A stretch of DNA of 64,000 bases from Alphaproteobacteria bacterium. GTDB taxonomy: Bacteria; Pseudomonadota; Alphaproteobacteria; SHVP01. Positions 10,558-28,595 of the stretch are shown piece by piece. The notes under the pieces are model-generated. The model searched no databases. It was not told the DNA's origin and was given only the letters and a program-made list of their open reading frames with translations. The stretch is from positions 149,118-213,117 of the forward strand of contig JAVJOO010000002.1 in the NCBI GenBank assembly GCA_040216735.1, in the 5' to 3' direction. Each line of letters begins with the position of its first letter. Position 1 is the first letter of the stretch. The translations under genes and the position numbers were made by a program.

Positions 10558-11487
10558 ATGTGGCGCATTGGCGGCGGCTGGCAAGAAGCCGTCATCAGTG
10601 TGAGCAATGTCGACAGCTGGATCGAGGCGCTTGCCGAAATCGGTAATTGGCGGGCCGTCCACAGAGGCCGAGCCGGACCCGATCTCGCAGCCCATTGGTC
10701 GTTGCCGGCCGATACGCAGATTCACGAAGCTGTCGTGGCGCAACCGCATGACCCTGCTACGTGGGTTCGGTTGGTGCAAATCGACGACGGGGCCCACCGA
10801 CCGATTCGCGGCAGCGCTCAGCCGTGGGACACCGGCGGCATTTTTTCGTTGCTCGTTCGCACTAACGATATCGAGGACATTCTGAGGCGAGCCAACGACC
10901 TCGGCTGGGGGTCGTTCAACGACATAGACGTGATGGAGTTTGGGGAACACCGCAATCGCAACGTCGTGCTGCGCGGTCCGGACGGCGTGTGCTTCGGCCT
11001 TTACGAATCAGCGAACGATCCGGCCCCCCATGCCTTCGGTGCCCCGTTTACCGCACAACAAATGGTCCGGGCAATCGGACCTGCCCGTGACTTCTATGCG
11101 GACATGTTGAAATGGTCGCCGTGGTACGACGGAGAAACCCGACTGGCCATCAACCAATTCGGGATGCCTGCCAACTACAAGGGCAAAGTGCCCAAGAAAG
11201 TCGCCATCATGCATGCCGCGCCGGAAGTGTTCGGTCAGGTTGAGCTAGTGCAGTGGGAGGTGTTTTCCGGGCGAGATTTGGCCGACCGCGCGATGCCGCC
11301 CAATCGCGGACACCTGGCACTGCGTTGGCCCGTCGGCGATCTCGACGCCACCTTGGCCGCCATGCGATCCGCCCAAGGAACGCCGGCACAGGTCCACCGC
11401 GTCGACCTGGCGCCCTATGGCACCGTGCGATTGTCCAGCGTCCGGACCCCGGACGGCGCCCTGATCGAATTACTTGAGCCGCAATAG
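10558..11487 (+). CDS. Two-domain VOC (glyoxalase/bleomycin-resistance/dioxygenase) family protein, function unknown
   Basis: 309 aa; both halves end in VOC-like beta strands (GPDGVCFGLYE; RTPDGALIELLEP). Confidence 0.55.
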   Translation: MWRIGGGWQEAVISVSNVDSWIEALAEIGNWRAVHRGRAGPDLAAHWSLPADTQIHEAVVAQPHDPATWVRLVQIDDGAHRPIRGSAQPWDTGGIFSLLVRTNDIEDILRRANDLGWGSFNDIDVMEFGEHRNRNVVLRGPDGVCFGLYESANDPAPHAFGAPFTAQQMVRAIGPARDFYADMLKWSPWYDGETRLAINQFGMPANYKGKVPKKVAIMHAAPEVFGQVELVQWEVFSGRDLADRAMPPNRGHLALRWPVGDLDATLAAMRSAQGTPAQVHRVDLAPYGTVRLSSVRTPDGALIELLEPQ

Positions 11488-17941: not shown

Positions 17942-18018
17942 CGCGCGACCAACGCAATGTGTGCCGACGCGGTCCGACATGCGAATACCGCGGACGTACG
18001 GATTGGCGCTCCGGTGAG

Positions 18019-19059
18019 ATGTCGGTGAAGATGCATGCGGTCGTCTTTGATTCGTTCGGCGACACGAACGTCCTCGACTACCGCGAGGTCGCGCCGCCGG
18101 CGCTGCGGCCCGATGAGGTGCTTGTCCGGTTGCACCGGGCCGCGGTCAATCACCTGGACCTAGATATCCGAAGCGGCGTCTCGGGGATGACTGTCGCGCG
18201 ACCGCACGTGCTGGGCACCGAAGGCGTCGGTGAAGTCGTCGAACTCGGCGTAACGGTTGCGGACTGGCAGGTCGGCCGGCGGGTCGGTACCTACGCGTTC
18301 CATACCTGCGGCTTATGCGACAATTGCCGAGCCGGGCGGATCAACATGTGCACCGCAATCCGCACGCTTGGTGGCGACCGGTGGGGTACCTATGCGACCC
18401 ATATCGCGGTCCACCAAAGTCAGCTTGTGGCCATTCCAGACGCGCTAGGCGACGAACCCGCGATCGCCTCTTACAAATATGCGACCGCCTGGGAGGCTCT
18501 CGTCGACACGATGAAGCTCCAATCCGGCGAAACGGTCCTCGTGATCGGCGCCGCCGGAGGCGTCGGGTCGGCGGCAACCCAACTGGCAGTCCACTTGGGA
18601 GCGCACGTCATCGGCGCCGCCGGGTCCGCCCAAAAGACCGCGTACGTAGAGGGACTAGGCGCTGCCCAATGTATCGACTACAGCCAGGAGGATCTGGCCG
18701 AGGCGGTGCTGCGCTACACCGGCGGCGTCGGCGCCGATGTCGTCTTCGATGTCGCCGGTGGCGAAACCCTGCGGCAGGCCGTCAAAGCAACCCGGCACGG
18801 CGGACGAATCGCGGTGGTGGGGGCACACGCCGGCGAAGAAGTAACGATCGACTTTGTCGACCTATTTCGCCGCCATATCTCGATCCACGGCTGTGGACGC
18901 TATACCCCGGCGATTCTCGCGCGCGTGTTCGAGATGCTGGGCGCAGGGTTGCCAGCAGCGGCGATCGCGGGGCGCTTCCCCCTCAAGGATGCCGCCCAGG
19001 CCCATATCGCGATGGCCCAGCGCGATTTCGTTGGGCGCTTCGTTCTGATCCAGCCCTAG
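18019..19059 (+). CDS. Zinc-binding MDR alcohol dehydrogenase / quinone oxidoreductase family protein
   Basis: Catalytic-Zn region GTEGVGEVVELG, structural-Zn cysteines (CGLCDNCRAGRINMC) and Rossmann motif VIGAAGGVGSAATQLA. Confidence 0.8.
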   Translation: MSVKMHAVVFDSFGDTNVLDYREVAPPALRPDEVLVRLHRAAVNHLDLDIRSGVSGMTVARPHVLGTEGVGEVVELGVTVADWQVGRRVGTYAFHTCGLCDNCRAGRINMCTAIRTLGGDRWGTYATHIAVHQSQLVAIPDALGDEPAIASYKYATAWEALVDTMKLQSGETVLVIGAAGGVGSAATQLAVHLGAHVIGAAGSAQKTAYVEGLGAAQCIDYSQEDLAEAVLRYTGGVGADVVFDVAGGETLRQAVKATRHGGRIAVVGAHAGEEVTIDFVDLFRRHISIHGCGRYTPAILARVFEMLGAGLPAAAIAGRFPLKDAAQAHIAMAQRDFVGRFVLIQP

Positions 19060-19084
19060 ACCGTCGCGCCAAGAGACAGGCCGC

Positions 19085-19924
19085 TCAGCGCGCCTTGACG
19101 GCGAGGACGTCGCACGGCGGGTGGCACAGAAAATCTTCCGCAACGCTCCCGAGAAATGCGTGGGTGATCCCAGTACGACCGTGGGTGCCGATAACGAGAA
19201 GGTCGGGTTTGAGTCGCGCGAACTCCTCGTCGATGACTTGACGAACCAGACCCTGCCGCAGGATTTGGTCGAATTCGACCCCGGTCACGTCCAATCCGGC
19301 AAGGAACGCCGCCATCTCGACCGCGGCTACTTCGCGGAACTGTTTGTCCTGCTGTAGACCCGCCGTTTTGCGATTGTCCGCGAGCCCTTTGAAGGGAATG
19401 TGATAGGCATGGATAAGGTGAAAGGCACCACCCTCGACAAATGCCGCCGCAATCTCGACCGCTCGTTTGGCGAAGATCGAAAAATCGACGGCGACCATCG
19501 CGCGTTTGTAAGGCCCGGTGGGGCGATCGCGCACCACCAAAACCGGCACTTCGGCCGTGCGGATTACCCGTTCGACGGTCTTGCCGCGAAACATGTCCTT
19601 GATCGCGTCTTCGCGGTGAACCCCAAGAACGACCAGATCGGCGCCGGTTTTAGCTGCCATGCCGAGGACGGCGGCATCCTTCTTGCCCTGCACGACCTCG
19701 ACGGCAACGCGGAGGCCGCTAGCGACAGTGAGCGCCGCGACATGGTCGTGAATAGCCTTCTGCGCGGCGGCGCGCTCCGCATCGGCGGCGGCGGGCCGCA
19801 ATCCCTCATCCAGGACATGGACAACCGTCAATGCCGCGCCGCGCGCCTCGGAGATTTGAACAGCGCGCTCCAGGGCCCGGTCGGACCTCGCGGATAGGTC
19901 CGTCGCCATCAACAGTTTCTTCAT
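19085..19924 (-). CDS. Universal stress protein, tandem UspA domains
   Basis: ATG at 19924 (MKKLLMATDLSARSDRALERAV); two USP repeats with ATP-binding-like segments (GTHGRTG, GVHRED). Confidence 0.8.
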   Translation of the reverse strand: MKKLLMATDLSARSDRALERAVQISEARGAALTVVHVLDEGLRPAAADAERAAAQKAIHDHVAALTVASGLRVAVEVVQGKKDAAVLGMAAKTGADLVVLGVHREDAIKDMFRGKTVERVIRTAEVPVLVVRDRPTGPYKRAMVAVDFSIFAKRAVEIAAAFVEGGAFHLIHAYHIPFKGLADNRKTAGLQQDKQFREVAAVEMAAFLAGLDVTGVEFDQILRQGLVRQVIDEEFARLKPDLLVIGTHGRTGITHAFLGSVAEDFLCHPPCDVLAVKAR

Positions 19925-20109
19925 CGCGCCGCTCTCCCAACAACGGTCCAATCCCGCATCCATATGGGGAGAACGCACTCCTATTTCCACAGAATTCGGC
20001 GCGCTGCAGTCTTTTTTGGGCGCGTTAACAGACGACGTTCGGCGGTGCTGCTGTAGCGCGGGGGACGGCAGCCGACGAGGGGTCGGTGTGGCCAACGGTG
20101 GCGTGGATT

Positions 20110-20200
20110 TGGCGGAGGGGGTGGGATTCGAACCCACGGTACCTGCAAGAGGTACAACGGTTTTCGAGACCGCCCCGATCGACCACTCCGGCACCCCTCC
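20110..20200 (-). tRNA. tRNA-Ser (anticodon CGA), class II with long variable arm
   Basis: Reverse complement reads GGAGGGG-UG-CCG...CGG-G-GCGGU-CUCGAAA-ACCGU-long variable arm-GUGGGUUCGAAUCCCAC-CCCCUCC-G-CCA; anticodon loop CU-CGA-AA; folded by hand. Confidence 0.85.
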
Positions 20201-20519
20201 GACAAGCCCGTGTTGTAGCCGTTCTAGGCGTTAGCGCACAAGGCTTGGTAGACCGATCGCGATTTCCGGAACCGCAATGAGCAGCGCCAAGAGGATCAGG
20301 CTACAGCCGATATAGGGCGCGCCGGCCAAGGCCACCTCCGAAAGCGTTATGCCCTTGGGCGCCACACCCAGCTCAACCCCTTTTCGGCATGCCTCCTGCC
20401 GCAAAACGATCGGATGGATATCGACAACCGACAATATGCGCCAAGTAGACTTGGCGCCGTTCGGTCTTCTCAACGGCGCCGACTATCCGTTCCCGACCGC
20501 CTATGGAGCGCGGGGTCAC

Positions 20520-20570
20520 TTGTCAGTGCCGACCGGACAGGTCTTAGCTTATAATCGTTGCAAGGTAGTT
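20520..20570 (+). promoter_or_regulatory. Putative sigma70-type promoter upstream of the cytochrome operon (TATAAT at 20550-20555; TTGCAA at 20558-20563)
   Basis: Perfect TATAAT hexamer in an unusually AT-rich patch 90 nt upstream of the first cytochrome start; -35 assignment ambiguous. Confidence 0.3.
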
Positions 20571-20645
20571 CTTACTAAGAAATAAGGGAGCAGACCGACG
20601 CGGCGAGTGGGCGATAGCCCAGTACCGGCGGGCGGAGGAGCTATT

Positions 20646-22037
20646 GTGTGGTTGGGTTGTTTAGTGGAGGCACTCGGTCGGTTGCGGTCGCCTGCGGTAC
20701 TCTGGCTCGGGGCGAGTCTTGCGGTCAACTTCGCCTTCTTCGCAACCGGAGAAGCAACCGGGCAGCAGCTTCCGCGCGATGATACACAGGCACACCTTGG
20801 CGTGGAGAGTTGTGGCGGTTCGGTATGTCACGACGCCGCTCAACCGTGGCCGACATCCCCGGTGACGCAGAACGAATATTCTATCTGGAAACAGCAAGAC
20901 CGTCATTCACGGGCGTACGCGACACTAACCACCGCCGAGTCTGCACGGATTGCCCGCAATCTTGGAATTGCCGACCCCACAGGCGCCGACATCTGCTTAG
21001 ATTGTCACGCCGACAATGTTGCGCCGGCTGTCCGGGGCCCATCGTTCGACATCGCGGAAGGCGTCGGCTGTGAAGCCTGCCACGGCGGTTCCGCCGACTG
21101 GGCGGGGCCGCATGCCGACGGATTTTCATGGCACAAGTCGAATACCGCCTTGGGACTCTACCCAACAGCAGATCCCGTCGCGCTGGCGGCCCTTTGCATC
21201 TCATGCCACGTCGGATCGGAAGGTTCCTTTCCGAGCCATCGTCTTTACGGTGCGGGCCATCCCCGTCTAGCGTTCGAACTCGATACTTTTCTCGTTCGTC
21301 AACCGATGCACGCGCAAGTCGACGTCGACTACCTCCTGCGAAAACCGCCGGCGAACGGCGCCAAGTACTGGGCGATCGGGCAGATCGCGACGGCCCACCG
21401 GCTCGCAGTTCTGATGTCCGAGGCACCACGCCTATCCGACGGTGCGTTTCCTGAATTGGCATTCTACGACTGCGCGGCGTGCCACCACCGGATGACCGAT
21501 TGGCCGGCCATGGCTGTTCGAACATCTCCGAATCCGAAGCCTCGCCTGAACGCAGCATCCTTTGTCATGGCGACGGCGATCGCCGCCTCATTGGTGCCGG
21601 ATCTTGCGATGGACGTTCAACGCGGCAGTATGGCTTTGCGTGCGGCGGCATTCAGCGACATGGCGGACTTGAATGAGGCTGCCATGCAACTCGTGAATCC
21701 CCTGAACATGCTCCTTTCCCGTACCGCAGAGTTCGATTTTGATGGTTCGGAGCGGAACGCCGTACTCCGCGCGCTGTTGGAGACCGGCGCGAATGGAAGC
21801 TACCGCGACTTCTCCGATGCTGAGCAAGTCGTCATGGCACTGGCCGCCCTTATCGCCGCGAGTCGGGGCGACTCGGTGCGCCCAATGTCCGCGGAAGGCG
21901 TGACCGCAAGGTACATGGAGATGTTCTATTCCGCTGCCGCCGACGCGGGGAGATTCGACCCCATCACGTTCAGAGCGGTTTTCGAGAAGGTCACAGAAGT
22001 TTGCGGGGATGCATGTCGAACGGGAGGAAGATCGTGA
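20646..22037 (+). CDS. Secreted multiheme c-type cytochrome (4 CXXCH + 1 CX4CH sites), ~463 aa
   Basis: GTG at 20646 preceded by GGAGGAG (5-nt spacer); N-terminal signal-peptide-like sequence (VWLGCLVEALGRLRSPAVLWLGASLAVNFAFFATGEA); heme motifs CGGSVCH, CLDCH, CEACH, CISCH, CAACH. Confidence 0.75.
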   Translation: MWLGCLVEALGRLRSPAVLWLGASLAVNFAFFATGEATGQQLPRDDTQAHLGVESCGGSVCHDAAQPWPTSPVTQNEYSIWKQQDRHSRAYATLTTAESARIARNLGIADPTGADICLDCHADNVAPAVRGPSFDIAEGVGCEACHGGSADWAGPHADGFSWHKSNTALGLYPTADPVALAALCISCHVGSEGSFPSHRLYGAGHPRLAFELDTFLVRQPMHAQVDVDYLLRKPPANGAKYWAIGQIATAHRLAVLMSEAPRLSDGAFPELAFYDCAACHHRMTDWPAMAVRTSPNPKPRLNAASFVMATAIAASLVPDLAMDVQRGSMALRAAAFSDMADLNEAAMQLVNPLNMLLSRTAEFDFDGSERNAVLRALLETGANGSYRDFSDAEQVVMALAALIAASRGDSVRPMSAEGVTARYMEMFYSAAADAGRFDPITFRAVFEKVTEVCGDACRTGGRS

Positions 22038-23890
22038 AAGTTGGCTTCGGTCGGATACCTACCGCCTTTTGCTACCTCCTGGCGGTTTGTTTTTTTCAAT
22101 TGACCTTCTTCACGGGGCTCAGTCTTGCCCAGCAGGGTGTGTCACCTGATCGTGCAAAGGCTTTCGCGCCGGCCGCAGACGGCACCGATGTCCCCTCAGA
22201 CTACCGCCGCTCCGTCGGCATGGACGATGCGGCTCTCGCCCATTCGAACCTATTGTCGGCGGACTCGTACCCATCGGCCGTAGAGTGCGGCCGTTGTCAC
22301 CAACAAATATTCACCGAGTGGGCATCCTCCAATCACGCCTATGCATCTATCTCGCCGATGTTTCACAAGTTCGAGCAGGCCATCAACGACCTAAGTTCGG
22401 GAACAATCGGGGCGTTCTGTGTCCGGTGTCACCAACAGGTCGGAACGCAGCGCGGAGAGTCGCGAGAGTTGCCCCTGTGGGAACGCTCGCCCGTGGCCCG
22501 TGAGGGCATCACGTGCATCACCTGCCACCGGGTGAACGCCGAGTTCGGCAAAGTCAACGGCGAGCGCCATATCGAGCCGGGCAGCATCTACAGCCCCGTC
22601 GTCAACGTTGGACGAAGCGAAAACCTTGGCGATGTCTTGGCCGACCCCGAGGAATACCGCGTGGCCACGGCCGACGATCAGGAAGGAACACCCATTCACA
22701 AGGGCGCCGTCGTTTTCGAACAGATCGGGCGTTCCGAGTTCTGCGTCTCCTGTCATCAGGTGGCCGTCAATTTGGGGATCAAGCTGGAAGTCGTCTGGGA
22801 GCAATATCGAGACAGCCCTGCCTTCCGGCGAGGGGTTACCTGCCAGGATTGCCATATGGGGAAAGTCCCGGGGGAAGCGAAGGGGTATGCCAAGTGGCCC
22901 ATCGCCATCGTCAACGGTCGCGTGATCGGAAGTCCGGAACAAAAGCACTCGAATCATGCGTTCTACGGGCCGGGCTATCCGATCGCGCATCCGGGTCTGT
23001 TTCCGTTCAACCCACGCAGCCTGCGCTGGGATATCCGCGAGTGGCTGACCTTCGACTACCGCGCAGGGTGGGGCACTCCCAACTACGAACAGTCGTTGGC
23101 GCAAAAGAAAGTCCCGTCTCCCGATTTTCCCCCGGTGTGGGCAAAGCGCGAAGATCGCGAAGCCGCGCGTTTGGTGATCGATCAGAACGAAGCGTTACTG
23201 CGGGCAAAGGAACGCGACCGGATTGCCGTCATGGAAAACGGGGGCCGGATCGACGGACCCTTCTTCGACAACGGCAAGCCCGTGTCTGGCAAGCCGCTCC
23301 ACTTCCGCTATCGAATCACGAATGTCGACGAGGGGCACAACTTGCCCTCCGGTTCGCTCGGCGCGCAGCCCGAAATATGGCTGAACGTCGTCCTGGTCGA
23401 CCCTGAGGGTAAGAGAGTCTGGGAATCGGGATACGTCGATAGCTACGGGGACATGGCGGACTTGCATTCTCTCGATGTGGCGGCTGGAAAGATCGAGCGC
23501 GACCGGCAGCTGTTCAACCTGCAGACGAAATTCCTGACGACAAACGTAAAGGGGACCGACCGCGAGATGTACCTACCGGTCCAGTTCGACGTCGATCAGT
23601 TGCCGTTCCTGCGGCCGGCTGCGGTGCCGACGACAGTGCTAAATCACCCACCCTTCGTTCGGATGGAGGGCCGCTCCATTCCCCCGCTTGGCTATCGCGA
23701 CGCGAGCTACACAGTTCCGGCAAATTTGATGGCGACACCGGGACGGTATCGTCTTCAGGTCCGTATGCGCAGTCGAGCTGAGCCGATCTACTTCATGAAA
23801 TTCGTGGGAGCGACCCCCGACATGGAGCAACGGATCAACGAGTTGATGATCGATATTCACCCCTATGCTGTTTCGTTCGACGTTGAATAA
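22034..23890 (+). CDS. Secreted pentaheme c-type cytochrome with ~340-aa heme-free C-terminal domain of unknown function
   Basis: GTG at 22034 preceded by GGGAGG; signal peptide VKVGFGRIPTAFCYLLAVCFFQLTFFTGLSLAQQ; CXXCH x5 (CGRCH, CVRCH, CITCH, CVSCH, CQDCH) all in first ~270 aa; overlaps previous gene stop by 4 nt; alternative ATG at 22013. Confidence 0.75.
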   Translation: MKVGFGRIPTAFCYLLAVCFFQLTFFTGLSLAQQGVSPDRAKAFAPAADGTDVPSDYRRSVGMDDAALAHSNLLSADSYPSAVECGRCHQQIFTEWASSNHAYASISPMFHKFEQAINDLSSGTIGAFCVRCHQQVGTQRGESRELPLWERSPVAREGITCITCHRVNAEFGKVNGERHIEPGSIYSPVVNVGRSENLGDVLADPEEYRVATADDQEGTPIHKGAVVFEQIGRSEFCVSCHQVAVNLGIKLEVVWEQYRDSPAFRRGVTCQDCHMGKVPGEAKGYAKWPIAIVNGRVIGSPEQKHSNHAFYGPGYPIAHPGLFPFNPRSLRWDIREWLTFDYRAGWGTPNYEQSLAQKKVPSPDFPPVWAKREDREAARLVIDQNEALLRAKERDRIAVMENGGRIDGPFFDNGKPVSGKPLHFRYRITNVDEGHNLPSGSLGAQPEIWLNVVLVDPEGKRVWESGYVDSYGDMADLHSLDVAAGKIERDRQLFNLQTKFLTTNVKGTDREMYLPVQFDVDQLPFLRPAAVPTTVLNHPPFVRMEGRSIPPLGYRDASYTVPANLMATPGRYRLQVRMRSRAEPIYFMKFVGATPDMEQRINELMIDIHPYAVSFDVE

Positions 23891-25438
23891 ATGCGTATTC
23901 GAGCAATTTCTTTATTCGTTGTCGCCCTAACGGCATTCTCGTCGGTCGCGATCGCCCAGGTGCCACGACGCACCCATCCGCCCGCCCAAAGTGAGGCAGG
24001 AACCGCGCCCGCCGAAGCACACCAGGCCGCACCCCATACCGACCCGACGGTCCGGCGCGAACCTTTCGACCGAACGCTGTTCGGGCCGGACCCCGTATAT
24101 CCGGTCGGCGCCTACGACCCAGTGGAGGAGACGGCGACCTACGGCGGAAAACGCGCTGTCCCAACTCCACGGCCTCTTCTCGAACTCGGGTATCCGCTCT
24201 ACGACGAAGGCCCCATTGGCGCAGGGCATGACATCGTCGGCGCCAAAAACTTGGTGCGGCCGCAGTTTCTTGTTTACGGCGACTTGCGCACAGCGCTTGC
24301 ATACAACGACACCGGCGGCGCCGAGAAAGGTCAGGTTGCGGCAAGGCTCAACCTTGAGGTGGACCTCAAACTGACGGCGACCGAACGCCTTCATGCCTTT
24401 TTCCGGCCGCTCGACAACAATGCGCGGTTCACGCGGGATGAGTTTTTCGGAGACGACGCACAAGGCGGCGAACTGATTCTCGACGGCGCGCTGGAAACGC
24501 TATTTTTCGAGGGTGACATCGGCGCCATCCAATCGGGCTTGACCGACAGATATGCGCGCTACGACCTGCCTATTGCTTTCGGCCAATTACCATTGTTCTA
24601 CCAAAACGGTATCTGGTTCGATGACGCGGTTGTTGGCGTGGCGTTCGCTGTGCCGGCGCGGAATTCGCCGAAACTCGATATCTCCAATTTCGACGTGTCG
24701 GTATTCGCGGGATTTTCCGATGTCGAGACCACGGCATTGCGCAAGGCCGGTGGTGTGCTCGACGAACACGGCGCTGATGTTTACGGCGCTGTTCTGTTCG
24801 CGGATGCGCGAGAGGGCCATTTAGAACTTGGTTACGGCTATCTCGACGATACGCGTCCAAACGGCAATGCCAGCTACCATAGTCTTGCTTTGGGGTGGTC
24901 GCGCCGCTACGGCGGGTGGCTTTCAAACAGCGTGCGGCTCATCGCCAACATCGGCCAAGACCCGGACGGCGGCGCCATACAGTCCGCCGATGGCGCGGTC
25001 TTCCTCCTTGAGAATTCACTGGTTACCAGCAAGCCGTCGACGCTGGTTCCCTATGCCAACTTCTTCCTTGGGCTCGATCGACCGCAACCGTTGGCGCGGG
25101 GCAACGACGGCGTGCTCAAGAACACCGGAATCAACTTCGAGACCGACGGCTTGACGGGGTTTCCAAAATTGACGGACACCGCCCAGGATGCGTGGGGCGG
25201 CGCCGTCGGCGTATCCTACCTGTTCGATCTCAGCCGCCAAGTCGTTGCGGAAATCGCGACCGTTCAACTCCTCCGCGGTAAATCGGACACGATTGTTGGC
25301 GAAGAAGTCGCCCTGGGCGCCCGGTATCAACAGAACTTGAGCCCTGCCTGGCTCGCCCGCTTCGACGCGATGTACGGCTTTCGGTCCAACGCCGACGACA
25401 TTCGCGGGGTTCGCGCGGAACTCCGGCGGAAGTTCTAG
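23891..25438 (+). CDS. Outer-membrane beta-barrel protein (porin-like), 515 aa, C-terminal Phe
   Basis: ATG immediately follows cytochrome stop (taaATG); signal peptide MRIRAISLFVVALTAFSSVAIAQ; alternating hydrophobic beta-strand patterns throughout; terminal ...AELRRKF, consistent with the BAM-targeting C-terminal Phe signature. Confidence 0.7.
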   Translation: MRIRAISLFVVALTAFSSVAIAQVPRRTHPPAQSEAGTAPAEAHQAAPHTDPTVRREPFDRTLFGPDPVYPVGAYDPVEETATYGGKRAVPTPRPLLELGYPLYDEGPIGAGHDIVGAKNLVRPQFLVYGDLRTALAYNDTGGAEKGQVAARLNLEVDLKLTATERLHAFFRPLDNNARFTRDEFFGDDAQGGELILDGALETLFFEGDIGAIQSGLTDRYARYDLPIAFGQLPLFYQNGIWFDDAVVGVAFAVPARNSPKLDISNFDVSVFAGFSDVETTALRKAGGVLDEHGADVYGAVLFADAREGHLELGYGYLDDTRPNGNASYHSLALGWSRRYGGWLSNSVRLIANIGQDPDGGAIQSADGAVFLLENSLVTSKPSTLVPYANFFLGLDRPQPLARGNDGVLKNTGINFETDGLTGFPKLTDTAQDAWGGAVGVSYLFDLSRQVVAEIATVQLLRGKSDTIVGEEVALGARYQQNLSPAWLARFDAMYGFRSNADDIRGVRAELRRKF

Positions 25439-25602
25439 GTCGACAGCGTGCGCGCCGACAGCCGCCGGCCTCGTAAGGCTCAATATTGAGGGACCGTAGG
25501 ACCATTTCGGCTTCCCTAGCTAGATTTACACGCAAAAGAGGAGGAGGTGCGAATAAACCCCCTCAAAGGGTGCGTTTTAAGGCCCTCGCCCATAGTCCGG
25601 CA

Positions 25603-25630
25603 TTGACAGGGGGGTGCCGAAGACTATATT
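25603..25630 (+). promoter_or_regulatory. Sigma70-like promoter for rplU operon (TTGACA-16 nt-TATATT)
   Basis: TTGACA at 25603-25608 and TATATT at 25625-25630, ~75 nt upstream of rplU ATG; flanked by inverted repeat ggtgccgaag / cttcggcgcacc. Confidence 0.45.
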
Positions 25631-25704
25631 TCGGCGGCTTCGGCGCACCCCAGAAACGCTTGGAATTCCGCCGCGAACGCACCTAATAGAAGGCCGGTCG
25701 ACCG

Positions 25705-26115
25705 ATGTATGCAGTAATGAAGACGGGCGGTAAGCAATACCGCGTCGAACCCAACGACCGCCTGCGTGTGGATAAGTTGGTTGGCGAACCCGGCACGACC
25801 GTCGACATCGGCGACGTGCTGATGGTCGGCGACGGCGAGAATACCCAGGTCGGCGCGCCGCTGCTGGCTGGCGCCTCGGTCAAACTTGAGGTCGTGGAGC
25901 AAACGCGCAACGACAAGATTGTCGTCTTCAAGAAAAAGCGGCGCCAGAACTATCGGCGCAAGCAAGGACACCGCCAGGAAATGACCGTGGTGCGCGTGGC
26001 CGAGATTGCCGACGCCCATGGCAAGAAAGCGACCGCAGCCGACGCGGCGCCCAAGCCGAAGGCAAAATCGAAAAAAGCCGCCGCGACCGACGCGGCGGCC
26101 TCGGACGAGGAATAG
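25705..26115 (+). CDS. rplU: 50S ribosomal protein L21 with Lys/Ala-rich C-terminal extension
   Basis: MYAVMKTGGKQYRV... canonical bL21 N-terminus; C-terminal KAKSKKAAATDAAASDEE tail. Confidence 0.92.
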   Translation: MYAVMKTGGKQYRVEPNDRLRVDKLVGEPGTTVDIGDVLMVGDGENTQVGAPLLAGASVKLEVVEQTRNDKIVVFKKKRRQNYRRKQGHRQEMTVVRVAEIADAHGKKATAADAAPKPKAKSKKAAATDAAASDEE

Positions 26116-26119
26116 ATAG

Positions 26120-26377
26120 ATGGCACATAAGAAAGCCGGCGGTAGTTCCAGGAACGGTCGCGATACAGCCGGGCGCCGCCTCGGCATTAAAAAGTTCGGT
26201 GGCGAGGTCGTCATTCCGGGCAACATCATCGTGCGCCAGCGCGGCACCAAATGGCATCCGGGTACCAACGTCGGTATCGGCAAGGATCACACGATCTTCG
26301 CGCTGATCCCGGGCACCGTGGCCTTTGCCGAAAAGGCGAAGGGCCGCGTTTACGTTTCGGTGGAGCCGGCCACCTAG
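26120..26377 (+). CDS. rpmA: 50S ribosomal protein L27
   Basis: [29 protein letters not shown] canonical bL27 sequence. Confidence 0.93.
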
Positions 26378-26396
26378 ATTATTCCGCTTGCCGGAC

Positions 26397-26431
26397 CCAA
26401 GGGGAATGGCGAGCCATTCCCCTTTTTTGTT
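26397..26431 (+). terminator. Rho-independent terminator/attenuator between rpmA and obg
   Basis: GGGGAATGGC-GAG-CCATTCCCC perfect 10-bp stem followed by TTTTTTGTT. Confidence 0.6.
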
Positions 26432-26451
26432 GGGCAGGCGAGCGCCGCGGC

Positions 26452-27483
26452 ATGAAGTTCCTCGATCAAGCGAAAATCTACGTCCGGTCCGGTAATGGCG
26501 GCCCGGGCTGCATGAGCTTTCGCCGCGAAGCGAACGTACCGATGGGCGGACCGGACGGCGGCGACGGTGGCCGCGGCGGCGACGTCGTGGCAATCGCGGT
26601 CGACGGGCTGAACACGCTGATCGATTTCCGCTATCAGCAACACTTCAAAGCAAAGAGCGGGCGCAACGGAATGGGCGCCAACCGGTCCGGCGCGGCAGGC
26701 GGCGACCTCGTCATCAAGGTACCGGTCGGCACCCAGATCTTCGCCGAGGACCACGAAACCGTCATCGCCGACTTTGCCAAGGTCGGTGACCGGGCTGTTT
26801 TGGCGACGGGTGGAATCGGCGGCAAGGGCAATGCCCATTTCAAGTCGTCGACAAACCGTGCGCCCCGCACAACCCAACCCGGTATGCCCGGCGAGGAATT
26901 CTGGTTCTGGCTGCGTCTCAAACTGATTGCCGAGGCCGGACTAGTCGGACTGCCGAATGCCGGCAAGTCGACGTTCTTGTCCCGGGTATCGCGGGCCAAA
27001 CCCAAGATCGCGGACTATCCGTTCACGACACTGCATCCGCAGCTGGGCGTCGTCTATGTCGCCGAGGAAGAGTTCGTGCTGGCCGACATTCCTGGACTGA
27101 TCGAAGGCGCGCATGACGGCGCGGGTCTTGGCGACCGGTTCCTCGGCCACATCGAACGCTGCGGCGTCATCCTCCATCTGATCGACGGCAGTGGCGACGA
27201 CCCGGTCGGCGCTTACACCACCGTCCGTCACGAACTTGCCGCTTATGGCTTCGGGCTGGAAACCAAAACCGAGATCGTGGCTCTGAACAAAGCGGATCTC
27301 TTGGACGAGGCCACGATCGCGCAACACAAACGCGACTTGTCCGACGCGGCCGGCGCACCGGTCGCGGTCATTTCGGGCGCAACCGGCGCGGGGATCGATA
27401 CGCTGCTGCGACAGATGCTCGAGATCATCGCCCGTTGGCGCGAACGGGAGGACCAAGAGGCAAGCGCGGCGGCGACACCATGA
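26452..27483 (+). CDS. obg: GTPase Obg/CgtA
   Basis: ATG at 26452: [26 protein letters not shown]...; G-domain motifs [22 protein letters not shown]. Confidence 0.9.
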
Positions 27484-28595
27484 GCGCGCTCCACGCTGCG
27501 AAACGGATCGTCGTCAAAGTCGGGTCGATCCTGCTGGTCGACCCAAAGACCGGACAGGTCCATCGGCGCTGGTTGGAGGGGCTCGCAGCCGATGTCGCCC
27601 GCCTGCGGGCGCGCGGCCAGGAGGTGATCTTGGTGTCGTCGGGCGCAATCGCGCTGGGCCGACGCCATTTAGGTTTGCGCACCGGCAAACTGAAACTCGA
27701 AGAGAGCCAGGCCGCGGCCGCGACCGGTCAAATCCATTTGGCCAAGGCCTATCAGGACGCGATGTCGGCCCATGGCATTTCGGTTGCCCAGGTACTGTTG
27801 ACCATCGACGATACCGAACAGCGCCGCAAATACCTGAATGCCCGCAGCACGATCGACACGCTACTGCGGCTCGGCGCGCTGCCGGTCATTAACGAGAACG
27901 ACACCGTCGCCACCGCCGAAATACGGTTTGGCGACAACGATCGCTTGTCCGCGCGCGTCGCGGAAATGACCTCGTCGGACTGTTTGGTCCTGCTGTCCGA
28001 CGTGGATGGACTGTATTCGGCGGACCCGACGATCGATGCCGGTGCGCACCTAGTCAAACGGGTTGAACGCATTACCCCCGAGATCGAAGCGATGGCCGGT
28101 CAACCCCGGACCGGCGACGGCTCCGGCGGCATGGTGACCAAGCTGATCGCCGCGCGCATCGCCACCTCCGCGGGCGCAGCGATGGTGATCGCGCGCGGTT
28201 CGGTCGAACAACCGATTCGCACGCTTGAGGACGGCGGCCCCTGCACCTGGTTCGATGCCCAGGGCAATCCGCGAACGGCGCGCAAGCAGTGGATCGCAGG
28301 AACGCTGCAGCCCTCCGGCTCCGTTGTCGTCGATGACGGCGCGGTGCGGGCGCTGGCGGCCGGCAAGAGTCTCCTGCCCGCAGGCGTGACCTCTATCGCC
28401 GGCGCATTTCAGCGCGGCGATGCCGTCTATATCAAGGATGCCTCGGGACGCGATTTGGGACGCGGGCTTGTCGCCTATTCGTCGACCGACGCCCGCGCGC
28501 TCATCGGGCACAAAAGCAGTGAAATAGAGGCATTGCTGGGATACCGTGGCCGCGACGAAATGATTCACCGCGACGATCTTGTCCTGAACGATTGA
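27480..28595 (+). CDS. proB: Glutamate 5-kinase
   Basis: ATG at 27480 overlapping obg stop (ATGA); [19 protein letters not shown] kinase N-terminus; C-terminal PUA-like region. Confidence 0.9.

Follow-up and report, generated by a model that had tools for sequence, protein, structure and literature searches.

An operon named ptdABCDEFG, for penta-, tetra-, and decaheme proteins, was described by Elbon et al. in marine Alphaproteobacteria (UBA11136 and others; bioRxiv 10.1101/2023.11.21.568154). [quoted passage not shown] The cluster shows high transcription in a marine oxygen-deficient zone and is among the more widespread multiheme systems without an assigned function; a literature search found no follow-up work on Ptd. 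A related build is described for MccSep / ExtKL of Geobacter sulfurreducens, a pentaheme selenoprotein polysulfide reductase from the extHIJKL cluster, in which a C-terminal Ig-like domain attached to the pentaheme core supplies an active-site residue at heme 2. MccSep is a periplasmic enzyme according to a preprint, though its gene sits in the Geobacter "ext" porin-cytochrome cluster.

Layout and identity of the three-gene locus

In the window (the whole 64-kb stretch of DNA that was analyzed), three plus-strand ORFs follow one another closely: a ptdD-like gene at 20646 to 22037, encoding a secreted multiheme c-type cytochrome of 463 aa; a ptdA-like gene at 22034 to 23890, whose 618-aa product is a secreted pentaheme cytochrome with an Ig-like beta-sandwich at its C terminus; and a ptdB-like gene at 23891 to 25438, encoding an outer-membrane beta-barrel of 515 aa. 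The ptdA GTG start at 22034 overlaps the ptdD stop codon (TGA, 22035 to 22037) in a GTGA junction and is preceded by GGGAGGA, the ptdA stop codon (TAA, 23888 to 23890) directly abuts the ptdB ATG at 23891, and GGAGGA lies 6 nt upstream of the ptdD GTG start at 20646. The three genes are co-directional and translationally coupled. Coordinates and junctions agree with a sequence-only reading of this DNA, which had described three overlapping or abutting genes on one strand whose products carry signal peptides; by eye, all three N termini read as Sec signal peptides. The operon promoter presumably lies in the upstream intergenic region (20474 to 20645, plus strand), where the sequence TATAAT occurs at ∼20551. 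A consensus scan detected no sigma-70-type promoter in that region, and the same scan detected no internal promoter or terminator between ptdD, ptdA, and ptdB. Only two ORFs in the 64-kb window have two or more CXXCH motifs.

Because gene content and order fit the published description, matched by description this locus is very probably a reduced ptdD-ptdA-ptdB form of the ptd cluster. The fit holds feature for feature: PtdA contains five CXXCH motifs, has a beta-sandwich at its C terminus, and is homologous to T. tepidum c552; a porin gene adjoins ptdA; and the cluster encodes a candidate periplasmic "tetraheme" cytochrome with four CXXCH motifs, a CX4CH motif, and a signal-peptide-like N terminus. 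The copy is real and conserved, but it is not the new architecture that had been suggested, since the module fits the published ptd operon, for which Elbon et al. had proposed the same porin-cytochrome idea. The locus therefore brings no new kind of system. It differs from the published operon in holding only D-A-B, in that order: tblastn searches of the 64-kb window with the Ferrovibrio and Solimonas proteins found no ptdC, ptdE, ptdF, or ptdG (NAD(P)H flavoprotein, cNMP + 4Fe-4S protein, ferric-reductase-like membrane protein, and decaheme). We call the locus reduced because 41 of 80 related loci carry these genes as an extended NAD(P)H/FeS/membrane/decaheme module, including 26 of the 39 that are fully flanked (at least 7 kb on each side). 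Many relatives depart from the operon of Elbon et al. in another way, with one fused Pyr_redox_2-cNMP-Fer4 protein instead of PtdC plus PtdE.

Relatives of PtdA were found by pattern scan, as matching stretches, in at least 591 GTDB species genomes, and the protein falls into more than 3400 clusters; carriers of the ptd cluster comprise hundreds of aquatic and soil bacteria. PtdA and PtdB are encoded next to each other in 79 of the 80 loci examined, and a PtdD gene is present in 63 of them, often as two paralogs. This recurrence of the gene set in relatives means that the ptdDAB grouping is not chance. The loss of ptdC/E/F/G from the 64 kb could be taken to mean that ptdD, ptdA, and ptdB are decayed remnants of a full operon, or coincidental neighbors, without joint function. 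We consider this highly improbable: the three ORFs are intact and translationally coupled, with every invariant residue present, and the D-A-B-only form recurs in 7 of the 39 fully flanked loci, in different lineages. A tblastn search of plasmids returned only distant multiheme proteins (at most 31% identity). Upstream of 127 related operons, FNR/CRP and Fur boxes were not enriched over a coding control, which gives no regulatory clue to hypoxia or iron.

A tRNA-Ser(CGA) gene, a neighbor outside the system, lies ∼450 bp upstream of the cluster at 20110 to 20200 on the minus strand (ARAGORN). The sequence-only reading had pointed to this tRNA and to AT-richer DNA as signs of acquisition, and both observations stand, the second as a slight effect: GC is 0.604 in the cluster compared to 0.629 in the 64-kb window (a value within the bottom 2.7% of 4.8-kb windows), and the ptdDAB genes have a GC3 of 0.66 to 0.72 compared to 0.73 to 0.78 in neighboring genes. 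The genomic position is also not conserved, with flanking genes shared by 0 of 162 related loci, as would be expected of a recently acquired island integrated at tRNA-Ser. However, the GC shift amounts to only ∼1.2 SD, and we found no att-like direct repeat of the tRNA, none on the far side of ptdDAB and no notable flanking repeat pair, as well as no integrase or transposase among the ORFs from 18000 to 28500. The flanks are housekeeping genes (USP, ADH, and proA, checked; rplU-rpmA-obg-proB, by reading). Moreover, genomic islands usually insert at the 3′ end of a tRNA gene, but here it is the 5′ end that lies toward the cluster. The case for recent acquisition is thus weak, and integration of an island at the tRNA seems quite improbable.

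The two cytochromes

A motif scan of PtdA gave exactly the five CXXCH motifs that had been claimed for it (22286 to 22300, 22418 to 22432, 22514 to 22528, 22742 to 22756, and 22841 to 22855, plus strand), and exactly five are present in 38 of 38 aligned homologs. Many homologs have no further cysteine (10 in total), and no cysteine outside the motifs is invariant in the alignment. By alignment and model, the C-terminal half (23021 to 23887, plus strand) is a long helix followed by a beta-sandwich. It carries an invariant GHNxPSGSLGAQPE loop, and residues 499 to 545 are highly conserved yet poorly modeled. With the C-terminal domain as the query, only 235 clusters at 50% identity were recovered (E ≤ 0.001), and the pentaheme module lay just upstream of the domain in 10 of 10 sampled proteins; a sequence search of the PDB with the domain alone gave nothing meaningful. 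In the model of the heme domain, pLDDT is below 50 over long stretches, so that neither heme ligation nor an open coordination site can be read from it.

Within the same genomes, identity to the window proteins was 64 to 77% for PtdA, 45 to 65% for PtdB, and 31 to 44% for PtdD. By this measure PtdA is the most conserved protein of the cluster, and so wide a margin over PtdB and PtdD is what one typically sees for a catalytic subunit. Neither the catalytic Cys/Sec of MccSep nor the CXXCK of NrfA is present in PtdA, which thus has no known catalytic signature.

PtdD has a c554-like heme domain at its N terminus, after which comes a C-terminal half that is helical. It scored 48.6 bits against Pfam Cytochrome_C554 (cutoff, 20.8) and gave a weak PDB match to Nitrosomonas c554 (1bvb, E = 1.3e-4). 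In all, 1655 homologs were found, with ∼40 to 57% identity among the best 120. PtdD is not a Nitrosomonas CycA-type c554: the equivalog HMM NF043010 gave 21.7 bits against a cutoff of 400, and only the generic Pfam domain was matched. The motif scan identified four canonical CXXCH motifs (20994 to 21008, 21069 to 21083, 21195 to 21209, and 21471 to 21485, plus strand), whose Cys and His residues show no or almost no variation in the alignment of homologs, and one CX4CH motif (CGGSVCH, 20811 to 20831, plus strand), in which C56, C61, and H62 do not vary across the 41 aligned homologs. The CX4CH is a probable fifth heme site, to which heme would be covalently attached, so that in contrast to the "tetraheme" of Elbon et al., PtdD probably carries five hemes rather than four. 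An earlier count of five heme motifs plus one noncanonical motif thus has to be lowered to five candidate sites in total.

We also looked for lipoboxes. None is present in the window PtdA, with scattered regex matches in 5 of 38 PtdA sequences; none is present in the window PtdD, and the regex matches in PtdD are the heme motif itself. We count it as new evidence that, as far as the sequences indicate, neither cytochrome has a consistent lipobox. The surface-exposed lipoprotein multiheme cytochrome that is a feature of MtrCAB and Geobacter Pcc was found in neither PtdA nor PtdD.

The PtdB barrel and a proposed route of electrons

PtdB starts with a signal peptide, carries a conserved N-terminal extension of ∼100 aa, lacks both cysteines and heme motifs, and has RRKF at its C terminus. 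Its AlphaFold2 model is a beta-barrel (pLDDT 79.7), which bears out the claim of an outer-membrane barrel ending in Phe and disposes of the concern that a barrel fold might be missing. By sequence, PtdB had no match in the PDB (single sequence and profile) or in Pfam/NCBIfam at E ≤ 0.1. It resembles the 18-strand specific channels OprD/Occ, AlgE, and chitoporin in fold only, with no detectable sequence similarity (8 to 15% identity), and unlike them it has the extra conserved ∼100-aa extension, and its gene is always accompanied by one for a cytochrome. Membership in the OprD/Occ sequence family (Pfam OprD) was rejected on the lack of a Pfam/NCBIfam match at that threshold, and a Cyc2-type fused cytochrome-porin on the lack of any cysteine. 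An MtrB-type barrel of ∼26 strands does not fit either. The MtrAB structure (6R2Q) provides a basis for judging the barrel width needed around a multiheme cytochrome. By this analogy, a barrel of ∼18 strands would not be wide enough to enclose a globular pentaheme protein.

This bears on the two readings that had been offered for the locus, either an EET conduit or a periplasmic enzyme served by a porin of its own, which we judge to be the right pair. In the conduit, one of the cytochromes, PtdA or PtdD, would sit inside PtdB, with electrons flowing out to extracellular Fe(III)/Mn(IV) minerals or in from extracellular donors. The multiheme cytochromes encoded beside an outer-membrane barrel, the strict PtdA-PtdB adjacency, and the complete chain seen in relatives (cytoplasmic flavoprotein to membrane protein to decaheme to periplasm) are consistent with it, and it is the reading proposed by Elbon et al. 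(bioRxiv 10.1101/2023.11.21.568154). However, because neither cytochrome has a consistent lipobox, we prefer to read the locus as a periplasmic reductase that has its own substrate channel rather than as a trans-membrane wire, and regard the conduit as unlikely.

In the mechanism that we propose, PtdA works in the periplasm as a pentaheme oxidoreductase of the architecture class of T. tepidum c552 and MccSep; its conserved Ig-like C-terminal domain would pack on the heme core and help form the reactive site, by analogy at heme 2. Electrons would reach PtdA from PtdD, a c554-like cytochrome with five candidate heme sites that would be soluble in the periplasm. PtdB would be a heme-free barrel of ∼18 strands that serves as a dedicated outer-membrane channel, lets the soluble substrate or product through, and probably docks PtdA. 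The electron source in most relatives would be cytoplasmic NAD(P)H, by way of a flavoprotein with cNMP-binding and 4Fe-4S domains (PtdC/E), a membrane protein that is ferric-reductase-like according to Elbon et al. (PtdF), and an FHA-anchored decaheme (PtdG), which suggests a regulated reductive chain that bypasses quinones. In this genome, electrons would have to come from a copy of ptdC/E/F/G elsewhere or from general periplasmic carriers. We give the whole PtdA-PtdD-PtdB mechanism a probability of roughly 0.45 to 0.5.

Because the window lacks the NAD(P)H module, it does not constrain which way electrons flow in this organism. PtdA could instead oxidize reduced inorganic species entering through PtdB, with electrons passing via PtdD to the respiratory chain. 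The resemblance of PtdD to c554, the electron acceptor of hydroxylamine oxidoreductase, would suit such a role, as would the absence of an NAD(P)H input module from the window D-A-B form; the oxygen-deficient-zone Alphaproteobacteria that transcribe ptd genes highly also express sulfur-oxidation genes, and in the closest relative (L166) ptdDAB lies beside narG-narK-fnr. However, the nar adjacency was seen in 1 of 162 loci and does not hold as a general association of ptd, and the c554 equivalog score of PtdD is far below its cutoff, as given above. In addition, the 26 of 39 fully flanked loci with the NAD(P)H-flavoprotein/FeS/membrane/decaheme module couple it to D-A-B, and such a chain should be hard to run uphill to NAD(P)+ without energy coupling. 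We therefore consider the oxidative direction unlikely as well. Candidate substrates for it include Fe(II) chelates, sulfur species, hydroxylamine, and NO.

Returning to the periplasmic reductase, a broader version of this reading can be put forward only tentatively. PtdA-PtdB may form the core of an unrecognized, very widespread class of periplasmic multiheme reductases with their own channel and, in most carriers, a NOX-like NAD(P)H feed, acting in oxic or hypoxic waters on an oxidant that lacks a recognized reductase, at a heme/Ig-domain site distinct from those of NrfA, MccA, and MccSep. Organically complexed Fe(III) or Mn(III), iodate, and an N- or S-oxyanion are candidate oxidants.

Taken together, four points sharpen the question posed by this cluster: a PtdB barrel of the substrate-channel type rather than an MtrB-type sheath, the c552/MccSep architecture of PtdA, a PtdD that probably has five hemes, and a minimal D-A-B core that recurs without the NAD(P)H module. 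They make the choice between "enzyme plus porin" and "electron wire" directly testable in cultured carriers, among them Roseibium aggregatum and Tistlia consotensis, both listed by Elbon et al., and Solimonas terrae.

Comparison with known systems

As in MtrCAB, MtoAB, and PioAB, multiheme cytochromes are encoded beside an outer-membrane barrel in ptdDAB. The features that define these systems and Geobacter Pcc were not found here, in keeping with the earlier view of a noncanonical porin and multiheme cytochrome module. The sequence-only reading had called for HMM searches against known families, and for NrfA, HAO/c554, OTR, MccA, TorC/NapC, MtrA/DmsE, and ExtKL, all curated scores of PtdA and PtdD were far below the cutoffs. 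For the MtrA/DmsE decaheme, TIGR03508 gave 19.5 and 29.5 bits against a cutoff of 192.2, and each protein has five heme sites. NrfA was rejected on the absence of CXXCK and on scores of 20.6 for PF02335 (cutoff, 24.1) and 12 for TIGR03152 (cutoff, 692).

The whole architecture of PtdA is also that of c552 and MccSep. Compared to T. tepidum c552 (PDB 5ZE8), it has 13% identity over the structural alignment and is longer (618 versus 435 aa), and to our knowledge no porin is associated with c552. Like MccSep / ExtKL, PtdA combines a pentaheme core with a C-terminal Ig-like domain, and ExtKL is its best NCBIfam match. It is not an ExtKL / MccSep, with 31.7 bits for NF040886 against a cutoff of 250, no Sec, and no invariant Cys outside CXXCH to serve as the distal ligand of heme 2. 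As PtdA has neither Sec nor a conserved free Cys for a His/Cys heme ligand, its chemistry must differ from that of MccSep. By analogy, MccSep nevertheless offers a precedent for PtdA as an enzyme encoded in a cluster that was named, as "ext," for EET.

Structure and conservation of the ptdD-A-B locus

The ORF listing of the window gave three co-directional ORFs on the + strand. Gene 1 (ptdD) most likely starts at a GTG at 20646, with GGAGGA 6 nt upstream, and ends with the TGA at 22037; gene 2 (ptdA) most likely starts at a GTG at 22034, with GGGAGGA 5 nt upstream, and ends with the TAA at 23890; gene 3 (ptdB) extends from 23891 to 25438. The gene 1 stop and gene 2 start overlap as GTGA and the gene 3 ATG abuts the gene 2 TAA, confirming the overlapping or abutting same-strand genes described in the sequence-only reading. 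That description was correct in all but one point: a motif scan bore out five CXXCH motifs in gene 2, but for gene 1 it gave four CXXCH and one CX4CH (CGGSVCH) instead of five motifs plus one. A consensus scan detected no promoter or terminator internal to the cluster. Because a near-consensus sigma-70 promoter-like site (TTGACA-16-TATATT, 11/12 matches) is located at 25603-25630 (+), directly 5′ of rplU, transcription of the downstream ribosomal-protein/obg/proBA genes is probably independent of the ptd genes.

The CX4CH of PtdD (20811-20831) is invariant in 41/41 aligned homologues, which suggests that this protein, termed tetraheme in the ptd paper, probably binds five hemes. Searches returned 1655 homologues of gene 1 (∼40-57% identity among the best 120) and 3456 of gene 2 (best 120 at 62-80%). 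Where a source was named, the best 120 for gene 2 came from Alpha- or Gammaproteobacteria and one 'Candidatus Cybelea' MAG, and all were annotated merely as 'multiheme c-type cytochrome'. Pfam recognised nothing beyond the generic Cytochrome_C554 domain in either gene 1 or gene 2. Signal peptides of the cluster proteins were called by eye, and no consistent lipobox was present in sampled homologues of PtdA or PtdD. In the PtdA proteins sampled, the number of CXXCH motifs is always five, and no Cys outside them is invariant. Across the same genomes, PtdA was far better conserved than its partners, at 64-77% identity versus 45-65% for PtdB and 31-44% for PtdD. The C-terminal half of PtdA retrieved only 235 clusters at 50% identity when used as a query, and the same pentaheme module lay just upstream in 10/10 sampled matches, which argues that the two parts are one functional unit. 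The Ig-like domain carries an invariant GHNxPSGSLGAQPE loop and a conserved, unmodelled segment (499-545) with His538; the PtdA model is not reliable over the heme domain.

Gene 3 encodes no Cys and ends in RRKF. Pfam matched nothing in it, and among its 1455 homologues none of the best 120 (50-67% identity) had a Pfam domain over the barrel. Some marine PtdB proteins have two N-terminal NTF2-like (Cds6_C) domains, as in a 'Legionellales'-labelled marine MAG group whose ∼840-aa PtdB carries both N-terminal to the barrel (L084 9001-11532; also L014, L019-L021, L024, and L029). The locus in the window is real, intact, and well conserved.

Membership in the ptd family and partner genes

Elbon et al. 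named a 'ptdABCDEFG' operon encoding, among others, a porin (PtdB), a periplasmic tetraheme protein (PtdD), a ferric-reductase-like membrane protein (PtdF), and a periplasmic decaheme protein (PtdG), and found it highly transcribed in UBA11136 Alphaproteobacteria of an oxygen-deficient zone (bioRxiv 10.1101/2023.11.21.568154). Listed carriers were Alpha- and Gammaproteobacteria, Nitrospina, Nitrospirales, Planctomycetota, Acidobacteriota, Verrucomicrobiales, and Gemmatimonadales (bioRxiv 10.1101/2023.11.21.568154). Each of the ptd features had been identified here, in the locus or its relatives, independently of this paper, and we therefore assign gene 2 as PtdA, gene 3 as PtdB, and gene 1 as PtdD with high confidence, based on architecture, fold, the PDB homologue (5ZE8), and synteny. 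The locus is an ordinary member, in reduced form, of a family that already has a name, and the proposal of a new architecture is not upheld. A literature search found no later published work on the operon; the key sources are preprints. Scores for all curated NCBIfam models, among them NrfA, NrfB/H, TorC/NapC, DmsE-family decahemes, ExtKL, c554, and octaheme tetrathionate reductase, fell far under their cutoffs.

Stretches with a gene 2 relative numbered at least 591 in a pattern scan that took one genome for each GTDB species, and at least 588 in a metagenome scan. Judged by record title, most of the best 80 genome loci come from Alpha-, Beta-, or Gammaproteobacteria, and a few are MAGs under other labels. 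By local tblastn over these 80, gene 3 was directly 3′ of gene 2 in 79 (the remaining locus is at a contig end), relatives of gene 1 occurred in 63, often as two paralogues, and three further genes lay within 10 kb in 41. The latter encode a ∼700-845-aa protein with Pyr_redox_2, two cNMP-binding, and 4Fe-4S domains; a ∼290-aa membrane protein with no Pfam match; and a ∼550-aa protein with an FHA domain, ten CXXCH motifs, and a hydrophobic membrane anchor predicted by reading. Where the core had 7 kb or more of flank on each side (39 loci), the full extra set was present in 26, D-A-B only, as in the window, in 7 from several lineages, an FNR-like/2Fe-2S protein with a separate cNMP/Fer4 protein in 5, and genes 2 and 3 without detected partners in 1. 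None of the extra genes is within the 64-kb window.

The membrane protein (∼290-307 aa; L002 13142-14008, L001 3795-4718) has His within several predicted transmembrane helices, by eye, and would fit a di-heme b transmembrane electron carrier, the 'ferric reductase-like' protein of the ptd paper. In a variant cluster without PtdD (L067 1569-3476; L081 8372-9652; L064, L068, L069, L074, L076, L078, L082, and L083), PtdA-PtdB is accompanied by a decaheme-like cytochrome of 635 aa, and an FNR-like NAD-binding/2Fe-2S protein is encoded downstream; in place of the latter, most other loci have one fused Pyr_redox_2-cNMP-Fer4 protein. The cytoplasmic input module thus takes two alternative forms. In the closest relative found (L166 1-7400, ENA contig k141_1171832; PtdA 80% identical), narG, a fused narK, and the gene of an Fnr/Crp-type regulator lie just 5′ of ptdD-A-B. 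Nar genes were near none of the other related loci compared, making this adjacency a one-off. Upstream-motif scans gave no clue to the substrate.

Genomic surroundings

ARAGORN confirmed the tRNA-Ser noticed in the sequence-only reading and placed it, as tRNA-Ser(CGA), at 20110-20200 on the - strand. The AT-richness reported in that reading is also real, though small: cluster GC is 0.604 versus 0.629 for the window (lowest 2.7% of equal-size windows), and GC3 is 0.66-0.72 versus 0.73-0.78 in neighbouring genes. Acquisition at the tRNA is weakly supported: we found no att-like repeat around the cluster and no mobility gene among the ORFs near it, and it is the 5′ end of the tRNA that is turned towards the cluster. 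We saw no sign of a recent event here. The flanks are housekeeping genes, identified by Pfam (radical-SAM protein, amidohydrolase, Zn-dependent dehydrogenase, tandem universal stress protein, proA of the aldehyde dehydrogenase family, gpmI, M23 peptidase, and S41 protease) or by ORF reading (rplU, rpmA, obg, and proB). No related locus among those compared shares these flanks, and this variable position across lineages fits horizontal spread over evolutionary time.

An 80-aa ORF between the tRNA and ptdD (20231-20473, -), with a hydrophobic C-terminus and no Pfam match, may be either a spurious call or what is left of a gene. A listed 369-aa ORF (19085-20194, -) crosses the tRNA gene; the actual gene there encodes the tandem universal stress protein (Pfam Usp, two domains) and starts near 19930. 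For a 309-aa ORF (10558-11487, +), Pfam returned no hit, even with the threshold relaxed to E ≤ 1.

Proposed mechanism and comparison with MccSep

The PtdB barrel belongs to an 18-strand channel class, unlike the MtrB class, and has no redox cofactor site. From what is known of MtrAB structures, this fold class does not leave enough room to enclose a globular pentaheme protein. The most plausible reading of PtdB is a dedicated solute channel, probably docking PtdA. We consider a trans-membrane wire unlikely. Elbon et al. suggested that the operon encodes a porin-cytochrome EET complex or acts in the nitrogen cycle (bioRxiv 10.1101/2023.11.21.568154). The sequence-only choice between an EET conduit and a periplasmic enzyme pair with a porin was reasonable, apart from the claimed newness. 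We put an enzyme with a dedicated channel at a probability of about 0.5.

For this enzyme-channel system, PtdD would be the electron partner. In most relatives, the partner genes, none of which lies in the window, would form a chain that starts with a cytoplasmic NAD(P)H flavoprotein/FeS protein and passes through the membrane protein to the anchored decaheme. Such a chain points to outward, reductive, quinone-independent flow, and we consider the oxidative direction improbable; the cNMP and FHA domains suggest that electron flow is regulated.

A relevant parallel comes from Geobacter MccSep (ExtKL), a periplasmic polysulfide reductase whose gene nevertheless sits in an 'ext' porin-cytochrome cluster (bioRxiv 10.1101/2025.11.18.688581). 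Its pentaheme core can be superimposed on the heme cores of T. tepidum c552 and MccA, and its C-terminal Ig-like domain sets a catalytic selenocysteine at the heme 2 distal pocket (bioRxiv 10.1101/2025.11.18.688581). By analogy, the conserved Ig-like domain of PtdA may contribute to a reactive heme site. ExtKL is the best NCBIfam match of PtdA, yet far under cutoff; the two proteins agree in their two-part architecture and in the solved structure closest to them, and the favoured reading of PtdA, by analogy, is a periplasmic oxidoreductase.
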